Virus record (IMG/VR): IMGVR_UViG_3300028591_000010
Span: 1 to 64,000 of that record
DNA length: 64,000 nucleotides
Strand: one strand, 5' to 3'
From: a virus
Taxonomy: Duplodnaviria > Caudoviricetes
In this document: one piece after another, positions 2,399 through 64,000 of the stretch
How positions within the stretch are numbered: the stretch's first letter is position 1
Layout: each line of letters opens with the position of its first letter
Translations under genes and position numbers: made by a program
The notes under the pieces: generated by a model
The model's database searches: none
What the model saw: the letters and a program-made list of their open reading frames with translations, nothing else
Told to the model about the DNA's origin: nothing

Positions 2399-3994
2399 AT
2401 GACGCATAACAAGATATATACTAAATTCATGATAGAATATGACAAGGCAAATGTTACTTCGTCATATCCATCCCTTACAAAGTATGAAGCTGCGACTCTA
2501 TTAGACAGAGCGTATCTTGCTTTGATTTCAAGGAAACTTACGGGTAATAATACCCGTAGAGTTCCTTTCGAATATGATACAAAAGCAATAGAAGACTTAA
2601 GACCTCTTGTAACAACTAAGAGATTTGAGCAGAAAGGTGGTTCTAATATTGTACTAAATGAATATAAGTTTGGAATGCCAGATGATCTCTTATATTATAT
2701 AGAAGGTGTTGCTAATTATGGTTCAGAAAGAGAAATAGTACTTCCTGTAAATCATCAAATAGCTAGAAAGTTTAAGTATACTAATAGCAATATTCCTTGG
2801 GTTAATCACCCAGTATCTTATATAGAAGGATCTGAAATATATGTACTTATAGATCCGTTCTTACATACAAGTAGTCCAGATTTAGATGGTACTTATATAA
2901 AGAAACCCGCTAGTTTTGTAGTGTCTCTTAAGAAGATAGAAGACGATAACAATGACGGAAATAATTCTGGAGACAATGATGATGGTGGCGATAATAATGG
3001 AGGAGGAAATGATTCCGGAGGAGATAATGGCGGAGGTAATTCTGGAGGAGATGATCAAACTACAGTAACACCTCCAGTTATAACACCAGATGATCTTACT
3101 TTTGCAAACGTTCTTTACGTTAATATAACAGCTGCTAAAGCAGATCATATTGTCTATAGAGTGAATAATGGCACATGGAATGAATACACATGGCCTATAA
3201 CTATAACAGAAACGTCTACTATAGAAGCATACGTTGTATTAAATAATATTGTTAGTAGTACAGTAACTAAAACTTATACTAAACAATAGCAGCAACAGAC
3301 AACAATTAATCCTCCTAGACTTGTTGGTGCTACTTCGTTTATTGACAATACATACGTAGCCATGTATGCAGATGAAGGGTGCCAAATCAAATATACGAAA
3401 GATGGTAGCGATCCATTAACGTCTACTACGGTAAGTATTTATTCTGGATAGATAAAGATAGAAGAAACTACAATTATAAAAGCTGTTGCATGGAAAGACG
3501 ATCATCACAGTAAAGTAGTAACGTAGACTTATGTTAAACAATAGTTAGATTCGTCAACCACACCTACTGTTATTATAGAACAATGTAAATATGTACCGGC
3601 TAGTTCAAATCAGGCAGAAAGTATCTATATTAAACATCAAGTGAATTTAAATAATGTCGGTGTTCGTGTATATTTACACACAATGATTACTGACGACAAT
3701 AAGACGCAGCATGGAGAAATTATTCCTATAATATACGATGTGGAAAGCAAAGTATATGAATAGCTTTTGCCTTATACAAACGGCGATAAAAAAGTAAGAA
3801 TAAGATTGCGTGGTAGAGATAATGACATATTATATAGTGAAGTTTTTGCAGATATAACTGACTTGCCATCTAACGCTCCAGAAGCACCAGATCCAGAAGA
3901 AGGATTCGATTACGATCCATCTGCACCAACATTAGAAGAACTTACATCAAACGTATTAGGCGAAGCTACGCTTGGCGAAATAATATTACAATAA
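2399..3994 (+). CDS. Tail ring protein N-terminal part fused to a Gly/Asp/Asn linker and two Fn3-associated/CHB_HEX_C-like domains (TAG=Gln, 531 aa)
   Basis: Fragments 2399-3289 and 3767-3994 share a frame and are separated only by 5 TAGs. Ring motifs FEYDTKAIEDL and YIKKP, then IKYTKDGSDP...IEETTIIKAVAW. TAA stop. Confidence 0.75.
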
Positions 3995-3997
3995 TAT

Positions 3998-5587
3998 ATG
4001 GATAAATTAAACTTAACATTTAAAGAGGGAGATGTTTTACATGCATCTTCATTGACATCTATTGTACAGACTCTCAATAGTGTAATAGACAATATAAATA
4101 CTGCGATCGAGAGTATTTCGTCTGGAAGCGCAGCAGCTACGTATGATTATACTTTCGAATTTCACGAAGGTTACTCATTAGGATACAATCTTGTTATTCG
4201 TAAATATCAGGATGGTAAAACATACAGAGAAAAAGTAGTTCCTTATTATGAAAGCGTGACCACGATGGAAAATGCTTTAAAGGAGAAAGGTCTTTGTACA
4301 TCGTTTAATCTTACTGTGAAAGTTTAGGAAAGAACTACAGATGGCGAACTTAGTTTTACAACAGAAGGAAATCCTAAATTTATACGATGCGGAACTGATA
4401 TTCAAAATAATGGTTGGAAATTATCAGAAGGAACCAAAGCCGGACAAGGTAAAGGTTCTTTCGAATATATTCAAAGTCATTACTACTACAGTGCAGGAAG
4501 AAAACCTTGGAACGAAGGTCTTGATATAGGTGATGACAATGTCGTATATAATCCTCCTACAGAGTTTGAAGTTTATTCTAATCCAAAAATATACAAGATA
4601 ACACCGTGGTCAAGTAGTATGGACGGAATAGAATTTAATGTGGCAGAAAATGTCGAAGGTCTTAGTCTTATTAAAGCGATAAGAAATACTCTTACGACTA
4701 CTGTAGATAATGTACCTTCTACTTATACTCATGATACATATGTACACGTAGCAAAGGACAACATTCTTATGGAAGGATTTACTGTATTTAGAAGTTCTGA
4801 ATTAGATTGGAGTAAATTTATAGATCTGACTACTGTTGGAAACGAAACCAGCCCGAACATTATATTTGGAAATAACTTCAATTTTGATAGATGGTGTCGT
4901 GCGTATTTAAGTGATCCAGAATACTATCCAGATCCTTCTAATGGTTCTTACAGAGGGTATGTAAAATATTTTAAGAGAAATCCAAAAACTGGACAAGGAG
5001 GTTATGATTTTCTATAGGACGGAAATATAACTTTGAATAAAGGTGATATTTTTGTATACTTTAAAAAGAAAGAAAATATAGTTGGCACAAGAATTAATCC
5101 TACAGCAAAAATCTATATAGATGACATATGGATTAATCCTAGAGATTATGGTTGGGAAGGAGATACTTGGTAGTTTAACGCGTGTATAGATTTTATTATG
5201 TACGCCGCTCACAACGATCTCATAGGTTCTGATGGAAACATATATAGAGATGTCGATACAATTCCTGAAGGAATTACTACTATTCCAGCATGGATAAGTT
5301 ATTATGATTAGGCACATCACCTTCCAGATGGCACTATAATAGGTGTACTGGATGATGTAAACAACATTTATACTCCAAGTAAACCAAATGTTCATTATCA
5401 CGGAAAGTGGGTTAGACAATACAATTCGCTTGTAGGCACTGTACCTACTCATATATATACTATTCCTTGGGAAGAATATGTGTATAAATCAAATGGGGAA
5501 AGATGCAATAGATTTGGTGGAGATAACTACGAAATAATGGCCTTTTGTGCTAATCAAAAGATCGAGTTTAAAAATATCCAATTCTGA
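3998..5587 (+). CDS. Putative fiber/receptor-binding-like protein (TAG=Gln, 529 aa)
   Basis: Fragments 3998-4327 and 4619-5017 are in one frame, continuous through 4 TAGs to TGA 5585-5587. N-terminal FKEGDVLHA...LNSV motif resembles phage fiber N-termini. Function is inferred. Confidence 0.65.
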
Positions 5588-59716: not shown

Positions 59717-61105
59717 TTACTTCTGCTCTTCAGCAGGAGTCTCTGCCTGGGCAATTTCGGTGATGTTACTTTCTGAGTAAGCAATCGACTGAGAAAGAGG
59801 ATCACGGAACAGGTTAACGATGATGCCGGCACGCTGCTGTACGTTGTGCAACAGTGAATCCATATCAACCTTAGTCAGATCAGTACCCTTATAATAGGTG
59901 TTGATGATCTGGTCAACAATCAGGTGAGCACGCTTGTAGTCAGCGTCGGTGTCATCCTTCTTGTTGAAGTTGTCGATGAGGTTGTCAACGTCCTCGATAG
60001 AGGGGTTGTTCATACCAATAACAATGCCGTTCATCTCATTGATAGTGTTGTTACATTTCTCAATGTAATCCTTGTGGGTTTTGATGTCAGTCTTTGCAAT
60101 GTTCACCTCAGTTGCATCTTTGTTTTCCTTAACAATTTCCTCTTTCTTCTTGATGATGCGCTCATTCTCCTTAATTCCCTTCTCTGCCTTAGAGATTTCC
60201 TCTTTACAGGACCAAGTGATCATGATACGGACCAAGTCGGCAATGAAGTCGTTGGTGAGAGCACCTTTGGTGTCGATCTTATCCGCATTGCGGCGATACA
60301 TACAGAAAGGACCAATGATTGTACCAACGTTGACGAAGTTCTTGCGGAACAAGCCAGCGTTACCAACCAGACCAACGGGACACGGACCTACGACAGCAGC
60401 CATTTCAGAGAGAAGGTCAGAATAGCTCTTATTCTTCACCTCTTCAAGAGCAGCCTTCTTGTCTTCAGCCTTGTTTGCCTGAATAGTCAGATAACCACGA
60501 TAGAAATCGGTAGCACGACGCATGCGGGCAATAATGCCCTCATTACCTCTACTGATAAGCAGAGTCAACGATGCAGCGAGTTGCTCGGGACTAGTAACTT
60601 CTGCAGGGTTGGTCACACCTTCCAACTTCTCTTCGGCAGCAATCTTCTTCTTCATGTCATCACTTACCTTTACGGCAGTGGACGGAATCTGAACATCACC
60701 CTTCTCATTAGGAGCGGGCAAAGCCTTCACATCAATTGCTACGCCAGTGAACTCGCTGATGGCGTTTACAGCTTCTACCTGGTTCTTCAGCATCATTTGT
60801 GCAAATGGGCTCTTATTTTCATGAACCTCAATAGCCAATACTGTTGCAAAGCCAGTCAATGTGAATACATTGATACTGTGAATCGTGTCTTCAGACAGAT
60901 TATAATATGCAGCAGCGTTAGGATTGTCGTGGATCATACCTTTCAAGCCATTCAACGCCGTTACAGTCGCATCGGGGCTTAATCCACTCTTTATCCCATT
61001 TACCACTGTCTTAACAGCTGGATTTTCTACTTTTGGAGTCTGCTGTGCTGCAGCCTCTTCTGCAGCCTGCTGTGCAGGACTCTTCTTGTTATTCTTGTTT
61101 GCCAT
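59717..61105 (-). CDS. Hypothetical protein, likely highly expressed
   Basis: 462 aa, biased codon usage, coiled-coil segment. Confidence 0.75.
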   Translation of the reverse strand: MANKNNKKSPAQQAAEEAAAQQTPKVENPAVKTVVNGIKSGLSPDATVTALNGLKGMIHDNPNAAAYYNLSEDTIHSINVFTLTGFATVLAIEVHENKSPFAQMMLKNQVEAVNAISEFTGVAIDVKALPAPNEKGDVQIPSTAVKVSDDMKKKIAAEEKLEGVTNPAEVTSPEQLAASLTLLISRGNEGIIARMRRATDFYRGYLTIQANKAEDKKAALEEVKNKSYSDLLSEMAAVVGPCPVGLVGNAGLFRKNFVNVGTIIGPFCMYRRNADKIDTKGALTNDFIADLVRIMITWSCKEEISKAEKGIKENERIIKKKEEIVKENKDATEVNIAKTDIKTHKDYIEKCNNTINEMNGIVIGMNNPSIEDVDNLIDNFNKKDDTDADYKRAHLIVDQIINTYYKGTDLTKVDMDSLLHNVQQRAGIIVNLFRDPLSQSIAYSESNITEIAQAETPAEEQK

Positions 61106-61188
61106 TTTGATAACGGTTTTAAAGATTAAATACTTGTAGCTGGTTAGACTACTTAACTATAACCAATTGCCGAAAGTAGACGTTTCTT

Positions 61189-61593
61189 TCAAGAATCATC
61201 TATAATTGCAACCGAGTTTGGTGGATTCGGCAAGATATGGATGTATCCCTGAGTCACCTCAGAGACATTACTCAAGGTAAAATTACGCTCATAAGCAGGT
61301 ACTATTGCCTGACTCACAGGTTCTGAAGTTACCTTCTTAGGTGCTGGTAGACCATCATCTGCTAAAAGGTATACTAATGAACCTGATGAAGCCGCCAGCC
61401 CCTGTGTGGGCTGTACCTGCATGAACGTCGTCTTACCTTCATCTTTAGCGAAGCTATCATGGATAAGCTTAACGCCTGCAAAGCCCAACACATAACATGT
61501 GAGCAATGCCCAGAACAGCTTATTACTTTCATTGTATCGAGCAATGAGAGTAATTAATACTATTCCGAGAATGAAAGTGAACAATGTCAACAT
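61189..61593 (-). CDS. Membrane protein (two N-terminal TM helices)
   Basis: 134 aa, directly downstream of the sigma factor gene. Confidence 0.65.
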   Translation of the reverse strand: MLTLFTFILGIVLITLIARYNESNKLFWALLTCYVLGFAGVKLIHDSFAKDEGKTTFMQVQPTQGLAASSGSLVYLLADDGLPAPKKVTSEPVSQAIVPAYERNFTLSNVSEVTQGYIHILPNPPNSVAIIDDS

Positions 61594-61596
61594 AAC

Positions 61597-62154
61597 TTAA
61601 ACGTTAATTTTGGTTTTTAATTTGCGTCTAGTTCTCGACAACGTTGACTTTATAGTTCCTGTTGGGATTTTTAACGCTTTACTAATCTTTTTAACTGGTA
61701 AATTATCGACATAAAACAACTCAAAGATCTTACGAGTGACCTCTGGTAGTTTTTCGAATTCAGCGACAACTTGTTTATACGTCAAATGATTGACTAGATC
61801 ATCCTCCGCTGATACTTGAACATTTTTAAGTGACAGTCTATCACCTTCATCTTCAAGTACAAGTCGCTTATTACGCGTCTCACGTAAATAATCTACAGCT
61901 GTATGATTAGCTATAATTCTCAGCCAACCTCCAAAGGAGTTGTAAGCTGTGAATGTCGAGAGTTTATCATACACTTTAAGAAATACAATATTAGCGATAT
62001 CTTTCGCTTCATCCATATCTCTAAGATATTGGAATAACACACTTTCAACAAACGGTTTGTATCTTCTATAGAGTGTATTAAAAGCAAGCTCATCGCCTGC
62101 TTGCGCCTTTTTGATTAGACCAATTTCAACATCGGTGATTCTAGGATTCTTCAT
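61597..62154 (-). CDS. ECF-type sigma-70 factor
   Basis: AQAGDELAFNTLY, DIANIVFLKVY, FGGWLRIIANHTAVDYLR (region 2) and ISKALKIPTGTIKSTLSRTR (region 4). ATG at 62154 preferred over TTG at 62166. Confidence 0.9.
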   Translation of the reverse strand: MKNPRITDVEIGLIKKAQAGDELAFNTLYRRYKPFVESVLFQYLRDMDEAKDIANIVFLKVYDKLSTFTAYNSFGGWLRIIANHTAVDYLRETRNKRLVLEDEGDRLSLKNVQVSAEDDLVNHLTYKQVVAEFEKLPEVTRKIFELFYVDNLPVKKISKALKIPTGTIKSTLSRTRRKLKTKINV

Positions 62155-62806: not shown

Positions 62807-63304
62807 TTAATACTTACCTTCTATACAACATATCAAGAATTCTGCTAAGTTATCAACATACTGATACTTTGCTTCTTTCTCCTCCTGCGTACAATTGGGA
62901 GAAGGTAATAGCCAAGAAAGATAATCTCGAATGATTTCAATCTGTATATCAAAATCATCTTTACCTTTCTGTTTAGAGATACTGTATGCATGTTCAATGC
63001 ACTGAAATTCTTTCATGAACCATTTAACCCATTTAGAGATACGTTCCCAATATTCTTTTTCTTCATTGGTTAAATCGTCCCAATTAATAGTTTTATCAAA
63101 CTCAAATTGATATTTACCATGTTCAGCAATGCCCAATGCTATACGAGTAGCATTATTACGCTGATCTTTATCACGATATATACCAATAAAATTTGAATAA
63201 ACATGATCTATCCACTTTTCTTTAGCTTTACGCCATTTAAGTGCATAGTTTACCATCTTGGGACAACGGTCCCGTAACATTTCTTTGTATCCTAATTTCT
63301 TCAT
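62807..63304 (-). CDS. Hypothetical protein
   Basis: 165 aa ORF starting just after the tRNA-Arg 3' end. Confidence 0.7.
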   Translation of the reverse strand: MKKLGYKEMLRDRCPKMVNYALKWRKAKEKWIDHVYSNFIGIYRDKDQRNNATRIALGIAEHGKYQFEFDKTINWDDLTNEEKEYWERISKWVKWFMKEFQCIEHAYSISKQKGKDDFDIQIEIIRDYLSWLLPSPNCTQEEKEAKYQYVDNLAEFLICCIEGKY

Positions 63305-63308
63305 ATTG

Positions 63309-63382
63309 TGATTCCTAATGGATTCGAACCATTGACCGACAGATTAGAAATCTGTTGCTCTATCCAGCTGAGCTAAGGAACC
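63309..63382 (-). tRNA. tRNA-Arg(TCT)
   Basis: Full cloverleaf GGTTCCT...AGCTCAGCTGGATAGAGC, ACAGA-TT(TCT)AA-TCTGT, AATGG-TTCGAAT-CCATT, AGGAATC-A. CCA not encoded. Confidence 0.9.
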
Positions 63383-63454
63383 GTTACGTCAGCGGCTACT
63401 ATTATTCACCGCTGACTACTATTACAAATCGTTCATTAGACATTGCCTCACGGC

Positions 63455-63503
63455 AGGAGTGAGGTAGGGATTCGAACCCCATACTCCAACATAGTCCTCA
63501 CTC
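63455..63503 (-). ncRNA. Mini tRNA-like element (acceptor stem + T-arm, no anticodon arm)
   Basis: GAGTGAGG/CCTCACTC stem, 14-nt linker containing TGTTGG, TGGGG-TTCGAAT-CCCTA. Confidence 0.6.
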
Positions 63504-63509
63504 TGTCTG

Positions 63510-63722
63510 GGCACTTAGGTAGCCCGTAACACCGACTTTACGCTGCCTCCTTGAGGCCCGTATAGTCTGCAATGTTAATATTGCCAGTTAATTTTATATC
63601 AGAGCGCTTCACGACTTACCGTCTACCGCTGTCAAATCCAAATAGGCCCAGATACTCATGTTAGACTGGTGGACCTAGAGGGATTCGAACCCTCGTCCAA
63701 ACGGCTTATTCTCAGTCACGCT
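63510..63722 (-). ncRNA. ssrA: Circularly permuted (two-piece) tmRNA
   Basis: 3' acceptor piece (GGACGAGGGTTCGAATCCCTCTAGGTCCACCA, ends 63667) precedes the 5' piece (GGGCCTATTTGGATTTGACAGCGG, starts 63649). 7-bp stem with G3.U70. TAACT then tag frame 63585-63538, GNINIADYTGLKEAA*. Outer ends approximate. Confidence 0.85.
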
Positions 63723-64000
63723 AAGATTCTTTTGATGTGATGTTGTCAAATCATGCTACATCTCTTGTGAACTCTATGATGATCAGTCACAGAATTCGAT
63801 TTAAGGCCATTTTCAGCCGTTCTAAGGCGTTTTCTAACCTCTAATGGGTAGCTAATCCATAAGCGGTTATTAAACGCTTCAAAACGGCTTTTTGGGACCC
63901 CATAAAAAGCACATTGCCCTACTACTGACTCTAAGGTTCTGAATAGAATATGCTTGCATTCTTGATATACAATGCAGTGTCAATATGTTGATACAATCTC

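Follow-up and report, generated by a model that had tools for sequence, protein, structure and literature searches.

Bacteria free stalled ribosomes mainly by means of tmRNA, and the smallest forms of this RNA that still work show what the rescue mechanism requires. The stretch of DNA analyzed here (64,000 nt, hereafter the window) comes from a virus record of 106,373 bp that has direct terminal repeats and of which it forms the first 64 kb. Near the end of the window, a first-pass annotation had marked a minimal, circularly permuted two-piece tmRNA gene in an amber-recoding phage. This raises the questions of whether so small a gene encodes a working tmRNA, where its permuted order came from, and whether it serves the recoding. 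Judging from comparative sequence evidence, we consider it likely that the locus encodes a functional, circularly permuted tmRNA of a Suoliviridae phage, which derives from a one-piece Bacteroidales tmRNA and provides a general benefit by recycling ribosomes.

Anatomy of the permuted tmRNA gene

An Rfam covariance model scan of the window placed a circularly permuted tmRNA gene at 63729-63538 on the minus strand, with a full-length match to RF04321 (model positions 1-213; 58.2 bits at a gathering score of 47 bits; E 1e-8). Together with the covariation between the two pieces described below, this bears out the earlier call of a genuine permuted tmRNA, and every coordinate given for it in the first-pass annotation agrees with the sequence to the base. 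The features are as follows.

63667-63729 (-): acceptor piece, about 63 nt (RF04321 model positions 1-63; sequence; covariation of T-arm and acceptor stem)
63727-63700 (-): P2 strands of the acceptor piece
63694-63678 (-): T-arm of the acceptor piece, with a 7-nt T-loop
63677-63671 (-): acceptor 3' strand, TAGGTCC
63670-63667 (-): ACCA, made up of discriminator A73 (63670) and the encoded CCA (63669-63667)
63650-63666 (-): spacer between the pieces, 17 nt, predicted to be removed on processing (sequence; 15-199 nt in relatives)
63504-63649 (-): coding piece, about 145 nt, its probable 3' end at ~63504 taken from the position of the tRNA-like element
63649-63643 (-): acceptor 5' strand, GGGCCTA with G3, pairing with 63677-63671 to give G3.U70
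63630-63598 (-): P2 strands of the coding piece
63538-63585 (-): tag reading frame, 15 codons GNINIADYTGLKEAA plus TAA (conserved tag family; fold z-score -3.1)
63585-63583 (-): resume codon GGC, with TAACT just before it; the tag frame has no start codon
63584-63569 (-): hairpin over the tag start, covarying
63567-63534 (-): helix 5, over the tag end including the stop codon, covarying
63540-63538 (-): tag stop TAA; the tag ends Ala-Ala
63509-63533 (-): candidate pseudoknot of the H type behind the stop codon, in which GGTG (63533-63530) would pair with TACC (63521-63518) and cross the hairpin at 63525-63509
63525-63509 (-): post-stop hairpin GGGC/GCCC, covarying, 3/4 pairs changed on both sides
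63457-63503 (-): tRNA-like minihelix, 47 nt; the minimum free energy fold is an acceptor/T-arm minihelix
Parts of the minihelix (-): G-1, 63503; acceptor, 63502-63496 with 63464-63458; T-arm, 63481-63465; C73, 63457
63308-63382 (-): tRNA-Arg with anticodon TCT, the gene that follows next (called by ARAGORN and, with 68.8 bits, by the Rfam tRNA model)

Behind the 5' strand starting at 63649, a D-loop analogue is followed by a single-stranded A/U-rich run that leads to TAACT; a GGAC motif precedes the T-arm. The tmRNA gene is the first of a small phage tRNA cluster, and the genome further encodes tRNA-Glu (66107-66179, minus strand) and tRNA-Met (66243-66317, minus strand). ARAGORN likewise called a permuted tmRNA in the window; however, its bounds and tag (63282-63760, minus strand, tag VAADVTVP) were rejected, since Rfam and 25 relatives back the frame of the first-pass annotation. 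Run on the relatives, ARAGORN calls the same tag family as this frame. Its call in the window engulfs tRNA-Arg, and pipelines copying this output would mis-annotate the phage.

The ~150 nt of non-coding DNA that precede the acceptor piece (63730-63878, minus strand) are conserved in relatives. They hold a small hairpin of the GGCT..AGCC type and the motif TGACTGATCATC, and may represent a phage promoter or leader. Scans for sigma-70 promoters and intrinsic terminators found none on the strand of the tmRNA gene. That neither a promoter nor a processing signal was found for the 5' end of the acceptor piece counts against a functional tmRNA. Just upstream of tRNA-Arg lies an 8-bp inverted repeat, GTCAGCGG / CCGCTGAC (63388-63416, minus strand). 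Hairpins with a GTGAA-containing loop also precede tRNA genes in cr273_1 (L002, ~3200-3240 and 3370-3400), and such repeats in front of tRNA genes may be a recurring signal of the tRNA cluster.

A tmRNA family of Suoliviridae phages

Capsid protein and DNA polymerase of the phage are crAss-like, and its closest named relatives belong to the Suoliviridae, Oafivirinae. A DNA pattern derived from the invariant tag end retrieved 26 IMG/VR contigs with 25 distinct sequences, including the window, and the same 15-codon tag family, with synonymous changes, is present in 25/25 of these pattern-selected relatives. The gene was also found in all 12 complete genomes chosen by capsid similarity alone (82-95%), nine of them scoring above the Rfam cut-off and three at 32-43 bits. 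Both approaches worked better than a search via the neighboring 165-aa protein, which led to three loci. Independent assemblies with the permuted order, taken from IMG/VR and GenBank, number more than 40, and the tmRNA family occurs in three Suoliviridae subfamilies. The encoded CCA noted earlier is present in the window and in few relatives, and thus holds for this gene but not as a feature of the family. Spacer length varies between 15 and 199 nt; in L009, a 59-aa open reading frame (4444-4623, plus strand) fills the 199-nt spacer between the tmRNA pieces. PHROGs and Pfam returned nothing for this spacer frame, for the open reading frame inside the L009 intron described below, or for the one neighboring the tmRNA gene. 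In three carriers the major capsid protein gene is split (L140 in cr131_1, L143 in cr50_1, L141 in cr118_1), and the insert in cr131_1 and cr50_1 contains an HNH endonuclease gene.

Two RefSeq genomes, cr272_1 (NC_055903) and cr273_1 (NC_055904) of the genus Buhlduvirus (Suoliviridae, Oafivirinae), already carry a syntenic feature annotated as 'transfer-messenger RNA, SsrA', which ARAGORN reads as permuted with a tag differing at a few residues. They share with the window the permuted order, the neighboring genes, the tag family (1-3 residues different), an amber-recoded genome with tRNA-CUA, and a tRNA-like element after the coding piece. They differ from it in a spacer of 75 nt instead of 17 nt, in the lack of an encoded CCA, and in a downstream element that is full-size and tRNA-like with a 4-nt anticodon loop, whereas the window has a 47-nt minihelix. 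Their records give the label tmRNA only and do not mention the permutation. A sequence search of a phage collection gave no match beyond these two genomes, and a literature search found no paper on a crAss-like or Suoliviridae tmRNA. The gene in the window is therefore a further member of a family already annotated but unstudied; as two-piece phage tmRNAs have also been published (PMC9004378), the first-pass annotation had overrated its novelty.

Covariation links the two pieces

We aligned 24 sequences as spliced two-piece molecules and 18 as contiguous genes. Among 18 relatives, 97.0% of the cells were paired versus 89.2% in shuffles, 23 of 56 pairs were changed on both sides (10.0 +/- 1.9 in shuffles), and the covariation score was 0.261 versus 0.112; for each measure, none of 500 shuffles reached the observed value. 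Controls in which the alignment was slid showed only 38-44% pairing. In the acceptor stem, four of the seven pairs are changed on both sides in relatives, G3.U70 is invariant in 24/24 sequences, and A73 is found in all. The T-arm is supported by covariation. P2, a long, interrupted helix, joins 63727-63700 of the acceptor piece to 63630-63598 of the coding piece, and in helix 5 a synonymous TAT/TAC change in a Tyr codon tracks the change between TAA and TGA at the stop. In the pseudoknot candidate, the hairpin itself covaries, and the crossing 4-bp GGTG/TACC helix hardly varies and is hence weakly tested by covariation.

With ~63 + 145 nt (208 nt), the molecule is far from the ~395 nt of the host tmRNAs. 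P2 reaches to within ~12 nt of the resume codon, and when further covarying helices, among them a hidden PK1, were searched for exhaustively, no candidate showed more than one compensatory pair. In the absence of a further covarying stack PK1 is unsupported, and no sequence is left for PK3 or PK4, in agreement with the earlier description of the gene as minimal. The lack of support for PK1 counts against a functional tmRNA, given that PK1 or a helix in its stead is regarded as relevant to function. Should the 208-nt two-piece form nevertheless work as proposed, its maintenance without PK1 by an abundant family of gut phages would make it a natural minimal tmRNA.

A tRNA-like element after the coding piece

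An acceptor stem and T-arm start 26-56 nt past the stop codon in 28 of the 29 relatives that were parsed, and an equivalent element is present in cr125_1, cr50_1, cr10_1, cr131_1, and cr118_1. Its stems are paired at 10-12 of 12 positions through 18 distinct, covarying versions of the acceptor. The middle of the element measures 14-49 nt, with an anticodon loop of 3-6 nt or none. In the window, 14 nt separate the acceptor strand from the T-arm and both the D arm and the anticodon arm are missing; neither ARAGORN nor Rfam (RF00005) called this minihelix (63503-63457) as a tRNA. Because the stems are kept and the anticodon part is lost, selection appears to retain only the half of a tRNA that is seen by RNase P, RNase Z, and the CCA enzyme. 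We propose that the element acts as RNase P/RNase Z punctuation that would form the 3' end of the coding piece. The same role had been suggested from the window sequence by itself, and the comparison across relatives lends it strong support as far as position and pairing are concerned. A tRNA-shaped element without a usable anticodon behind the coding piece of a tmRNA appears to be undescribed so far.

In 19 of 28 elements, G-1 stands opposite C73, and that these two bases and the acceptor sequence are so strongly conserved may mean that more than the shape of the minihelix matters. Since G-1:C73 classically marks histidine identity, the minihelix may have a role once released; that it might serve as a substrate of HisRS is pure speculation.

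Two less favorable readings of the locus bear on its structure. In the one, the permuted gene would be an artefact or a relic, whether through exchange of the halves during assembly, as a pseudogene, or as an attP-type remnant of a host tmRNA gene. Phages integrating into tmRNA genes often carry 3' tmRNA fragments; yet the order of the pieces is identical in the more than 40 independent assemblies, which argues against the misassembly considered at the outset, the two halves covary with each other, and the tag frame is intact everywhere, so that we reject this reading as very improbable. In the other, the downstream element would be a decaying tRNA gene of the cluster that takes no part in forming the tmRNA 3' end. 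The location of the tmRNA within a tRNA cluster, the decay-like variability of the middle of the element, and the weak single-sequence fold z-score of the minihelix (-1.4) fit this idea. Decay does not readily account for stems and a T-arm that stay paired through 18 covarying versions while the anticodon part has been destroyed in different ways, for a position after the pseudoknot that is fixed across three subfamilies, or for the genuine tRNAs that fill exactly this slot in four relatives (tRNA-Met in three of them), and we regard it as rather improbable compared with a role in 3'-end formation.

Group I introns in some relatives

In some relatives, a group I intron of ~760-830 nt interrupts the T-loop of the acceptor piece (RF00028, 66-87 bits in L008, L009, and L022). 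The intron loci are L009:3540-4430, L022:7056-7952, L008 (minus strand, oriented 3701-4500), and cr118_1 (MT774379, ~60830-61620, minus strand). The introns occupy two sub-sites of the loop, behind nucleotide 1-2 (L009, L022) and behind nucleotide 7 (L008, cr118_1). Rfam did not detect the intron of cr118_1, whose identification consequently rests on the similarity of its 5' end to that of L008. The L009 intron contains a 209-aa Cys-rich open reading frame on the opposite strand (3725-4354, minus strand) without a Pfam match. A type-P1 twister ribozyme candidate at L022:1565-1618 (plus strand) stayed below threshold (43.4 bits at a cut-off of 67.2). The 2025 tmRNA database paper treats 'permuted' and 'intron' as separate forms and states that no discovered intron exceeds 700 bp. 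An intron in the T-loop of a permuted tmRNA appears to be undescribed so far.

Intron-split copies escape ARAGORN and obtain low RF04321 scores. Accordingly, cr118_1 had been taken as tmRNA-free (21 bits and no ARAGORN call), which was rejected when reading of the locus revealed an intron-split copy. For genome annotation, ARAGORN mis-calls the tag in the window, and the intron-split members are largely missed by ARAGORN as well as by Rfam.

Relation to amber recoding

The phage in the window is amber-recoded. Late genes on the plus strand are open only with TAG as a sense codon, which lengthens the longest frame from 622 to 5104 aa. Outside the window, at genome position 76681-76755 (plus strand), the phage encodes an amber suppressor tRNA with anticodon CUA. 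tRNA-CUA genes are also found in cr272_1, cr273_1, cr131_1, cr125_1, and G009. The former two had been considered as unrecoded carriers because of 0-2 TAGs in one late gene, which was rejected on the basis of whole-genome frames and tRNA-CUA. The close relatives tested are all recoded, all carry the tmRNA, and form one clade. We therefore turn to 12 other Crassvirales beyond these relatives. Here, the tmRNA carriers include recoded genomes (cr131_1, cr125_1) as well as three with the standard code, namely cr50_1 and cr10_1 (Boorivirinae) and cr118_1 (Uncouvirinae), which lack a suppressor tRNA and have frames of 4461-4949 aa that translation table 11 leaves open. The tmRNA was absent from the remaining standard-code genomes of this sample, four Steigviridae, one Crevaviridae, one Intestiviridae, and the termite-symbiont phage ProJPt-Bp1. 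The sample held no recoded genome lacking the tmRNA and bears on 'recoded implies tmRNA' within the family only. The tmRNA thus characterizes gut Suoliviridae irrespective of recoding, and its co-occurrence with recoding in the clade of the window is explained by descent. As the tmRNA stands outside the stop-codon recoding toolkit, it is of no use as evidence for or against recoding.

Functional reading and its alternatives

No SmpB gene was found in the phage of the window or in any of 31 carrier genomes, so that, as had been anticipated, host SmpB must serve, along with host AlaRS and EF-Tu. Permuted tmRNA precursors are known to be cut by tRNA-processing enzymes (PMC11915505, PMC3985003). 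Along these lines, we envisage a single precursor whose transcription would also take in the tRNA-like element and tRNA-Arg downstream. RNase P would cut at 63649, at the 5' strand of the tRNA-like domain, and at ~63503, at the minihelix, the latter cut setting the 3' end of the coding piece; the acceptor piece would be finished by 3' trimming and, in relatives without an encoded CCA, by CCA addition. The two pieces of ~63 and ~145 nt would then pair via the acceptor stem and the long P2, be charged by host AlaRS, guided by G3.U70 and A73, and be delivered to non-stop ribosomes by host SmpB. Translation would resume at GGC and add A-GNINIADYTGLKEAA. The benefit to the phage would lie in ribosome recycling in the infected cell and in a phage-specified tag on the rescued products, and would not be amber-specific. 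If so, this minimal phage tmRNA would offer a handle on the effects of crAss-like phages on host translation.

An amber-specific role, as the first-pass annotation had suggested, would have the tmRNA rescue ribosomes at in-frame TAGs or at host TAG stops read through by the suppressor. Readthrough by suppressor tRNAs is known to generate tmRNA substrates (Ueda 2002, as cited in PMC3985003), and tmRNA is also active at unassigned UAG codons (PMC6207430); the phage in the window and every close relative tested combine recoding with the tmRNA, and the tag ends with TAA or TGA, never with TAG, in 28/28 sequences. However, the host tmRNAs inspected also end with TAA or TGA, so that the choice of the tag stop is uninformative and was dropped as evidence for recoding, the association within the clade is accounted for by descent, and the standard-code phages cr50_1, cr10_1, and cr118_1 carry the same tmRNA family without a suppressor tRNA. 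It therefore seems rather doubtful that recoding is what the gene is for, although a secondary benefit in recoded members, where suppressor readthrough yields tmRNA substrates (PMC3985003), is possible. A somewhat better case, if still an unlikely one, can be made for a takeover in which the phage RNA competes for SmpB and its tag changes the fate of the tagged proteins, for instance by letting them evade host proteases or by redirecting them, or in which it would replace a host tmRNA lost during infection, perhaps to defence nucleases as the first-pass annotation had also suggested. The tRNA-like domain is host-like, while the tag differs systematically: it comprises 15 residues with a DYT core and an EAA end, whereas host tags are 9-residue GENNYALAA types ending in LAA. 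The tag peptide is strongly conserved, phage and host RNAs would share the host protein in the absence of a phage SmpB, and a phage tmRNA mimic without coding sequence is mentioned in PMC11915505 as reported to inhibit host tmRNA. Part of the tag conservation, though, is owed to overlapping RNA helices. Deliberate replacement of the host tag may be competing with or complementary to general rescue, the reading we prefer, against which the EAA end in place of the host LAA also has to be counted.

Origin of the permutation and comparison with other tmRNAs

A 24-nt degenerate pattern from the 5' end of the phage RNA, searched in 185,579 species genomes, matched almost only Bacteroidota, and no alpha- or betaproteobacterial or cyanobacterial title was among the matches listed. 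ARAGORN identified a tmRNA in 61 of 80 listed loci, and all 61 are one-piece genes with GENNYALAA-type tags, none of them permuted, as expected from the earlier statement on Bacteroidota tmRNA. Compared with Bacteroidales tmRNAs, the gene in the window is identical at 34 of the last 40 and 24 of the first 30 nt. Shared features are the D-loop analogue, GGAC before the T-arm, the Gly resume codon GGC, and the ATTAACT-GGC resume context. The Bacteroidales tmRNA differs in being colinear, about twice as long (~395 nt), and equipped with four pseudoknots and a 9-residue tag ending in LAA, and the one-piece model RF00023 gave only a 9.7-bit fragment match in the window, where the order is permuted.

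Two-piece tmRNAs have reportedly been described, by Keiler in 2000 and by Sharkady and Williams in 2004, from Alphaproteobacteria, some Betaproteobacteria, and Cyanobacteria. These RNAs (RF01849, RF01850, RF01851) share with the gene in the window the permuted order, a tRNA-like domain built from two RNAs, the Ala identity, and the tag frame in the downstream piece. They retain PK1 and PK2 (PMC3985003), whereas a PK1 is not supported here. Moreover, the sequence affinity of the gene lies with the one-piece Bacteroidales tmRNA and not with these lineages: the beta model reached 35.7 bits versus a threshold of 84, over the tRNA-like domain only (model positions 81-162), and the alpha and cyanobacterial models gave no match at E up to 10. 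With a tRNA-like domain and resume context resembling Bacteroidales, lineage models far below threshold, and a one-piece tmRNA in the host phylum, the permutation appears to have arisen separately, in the phage lineage. This is the simplest reading and makes the independent permutation proposed earlier plausible, but it is not proven, since a domain constrained by host AlaRS and SmpB could converge. It is tempting to extend it to a fuller scenario, possible yet tentative, in which a Bacteroidales gene gave rise to a separate, phage-borne two-piece form, reduced to the tRNA-like domain, P2, the tag frame, and one pseudoknot, furnished with a dedicated tRNA-shaped 3' punctuation, split by introns in some members, and directing tagged proteins to a fate chosen by the phage.

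For the punctuation, the nearest parallel we see is mascRNA/MALAT1 (RF01684), a tRNA-shaped element that directly follows a functional RNA, as proposed for the minihelix in the window. There, the upstream RNA receives its 3' end when RNase P cuts on the 5' side of the element, the principle we suggest for the coding piece. As mascRNA is eukaryotic and its match in the window is sub-threshold (21.7 versus 42.5 bits), this is an analogy that implies no homology; if processing proceeds as predicted, the phage element would be a case from the bacterial world of tRNA-like punctuation ending another RNA.

Two-piece tmRNAs are also known from marine phages, including the OM43 phage Melnitz, pelagimyophages, and cyanophages (PMC9004378). 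As in the family described here, no phage SmpB is reported for their two-piece ssrA, which has been proposed to support the hijacked translation machinery (PMC9004378). In contrast, marine-phage tmRNAs resemble the two-piece lineages of their own alphaproteobacterial or cyanobacterial hosts, whereas the host phylum of the phage in the window has a one-piece tmRNA. It is thus plausible that permutation of the tmRNA gene can arise outside the three bacterial lineages.
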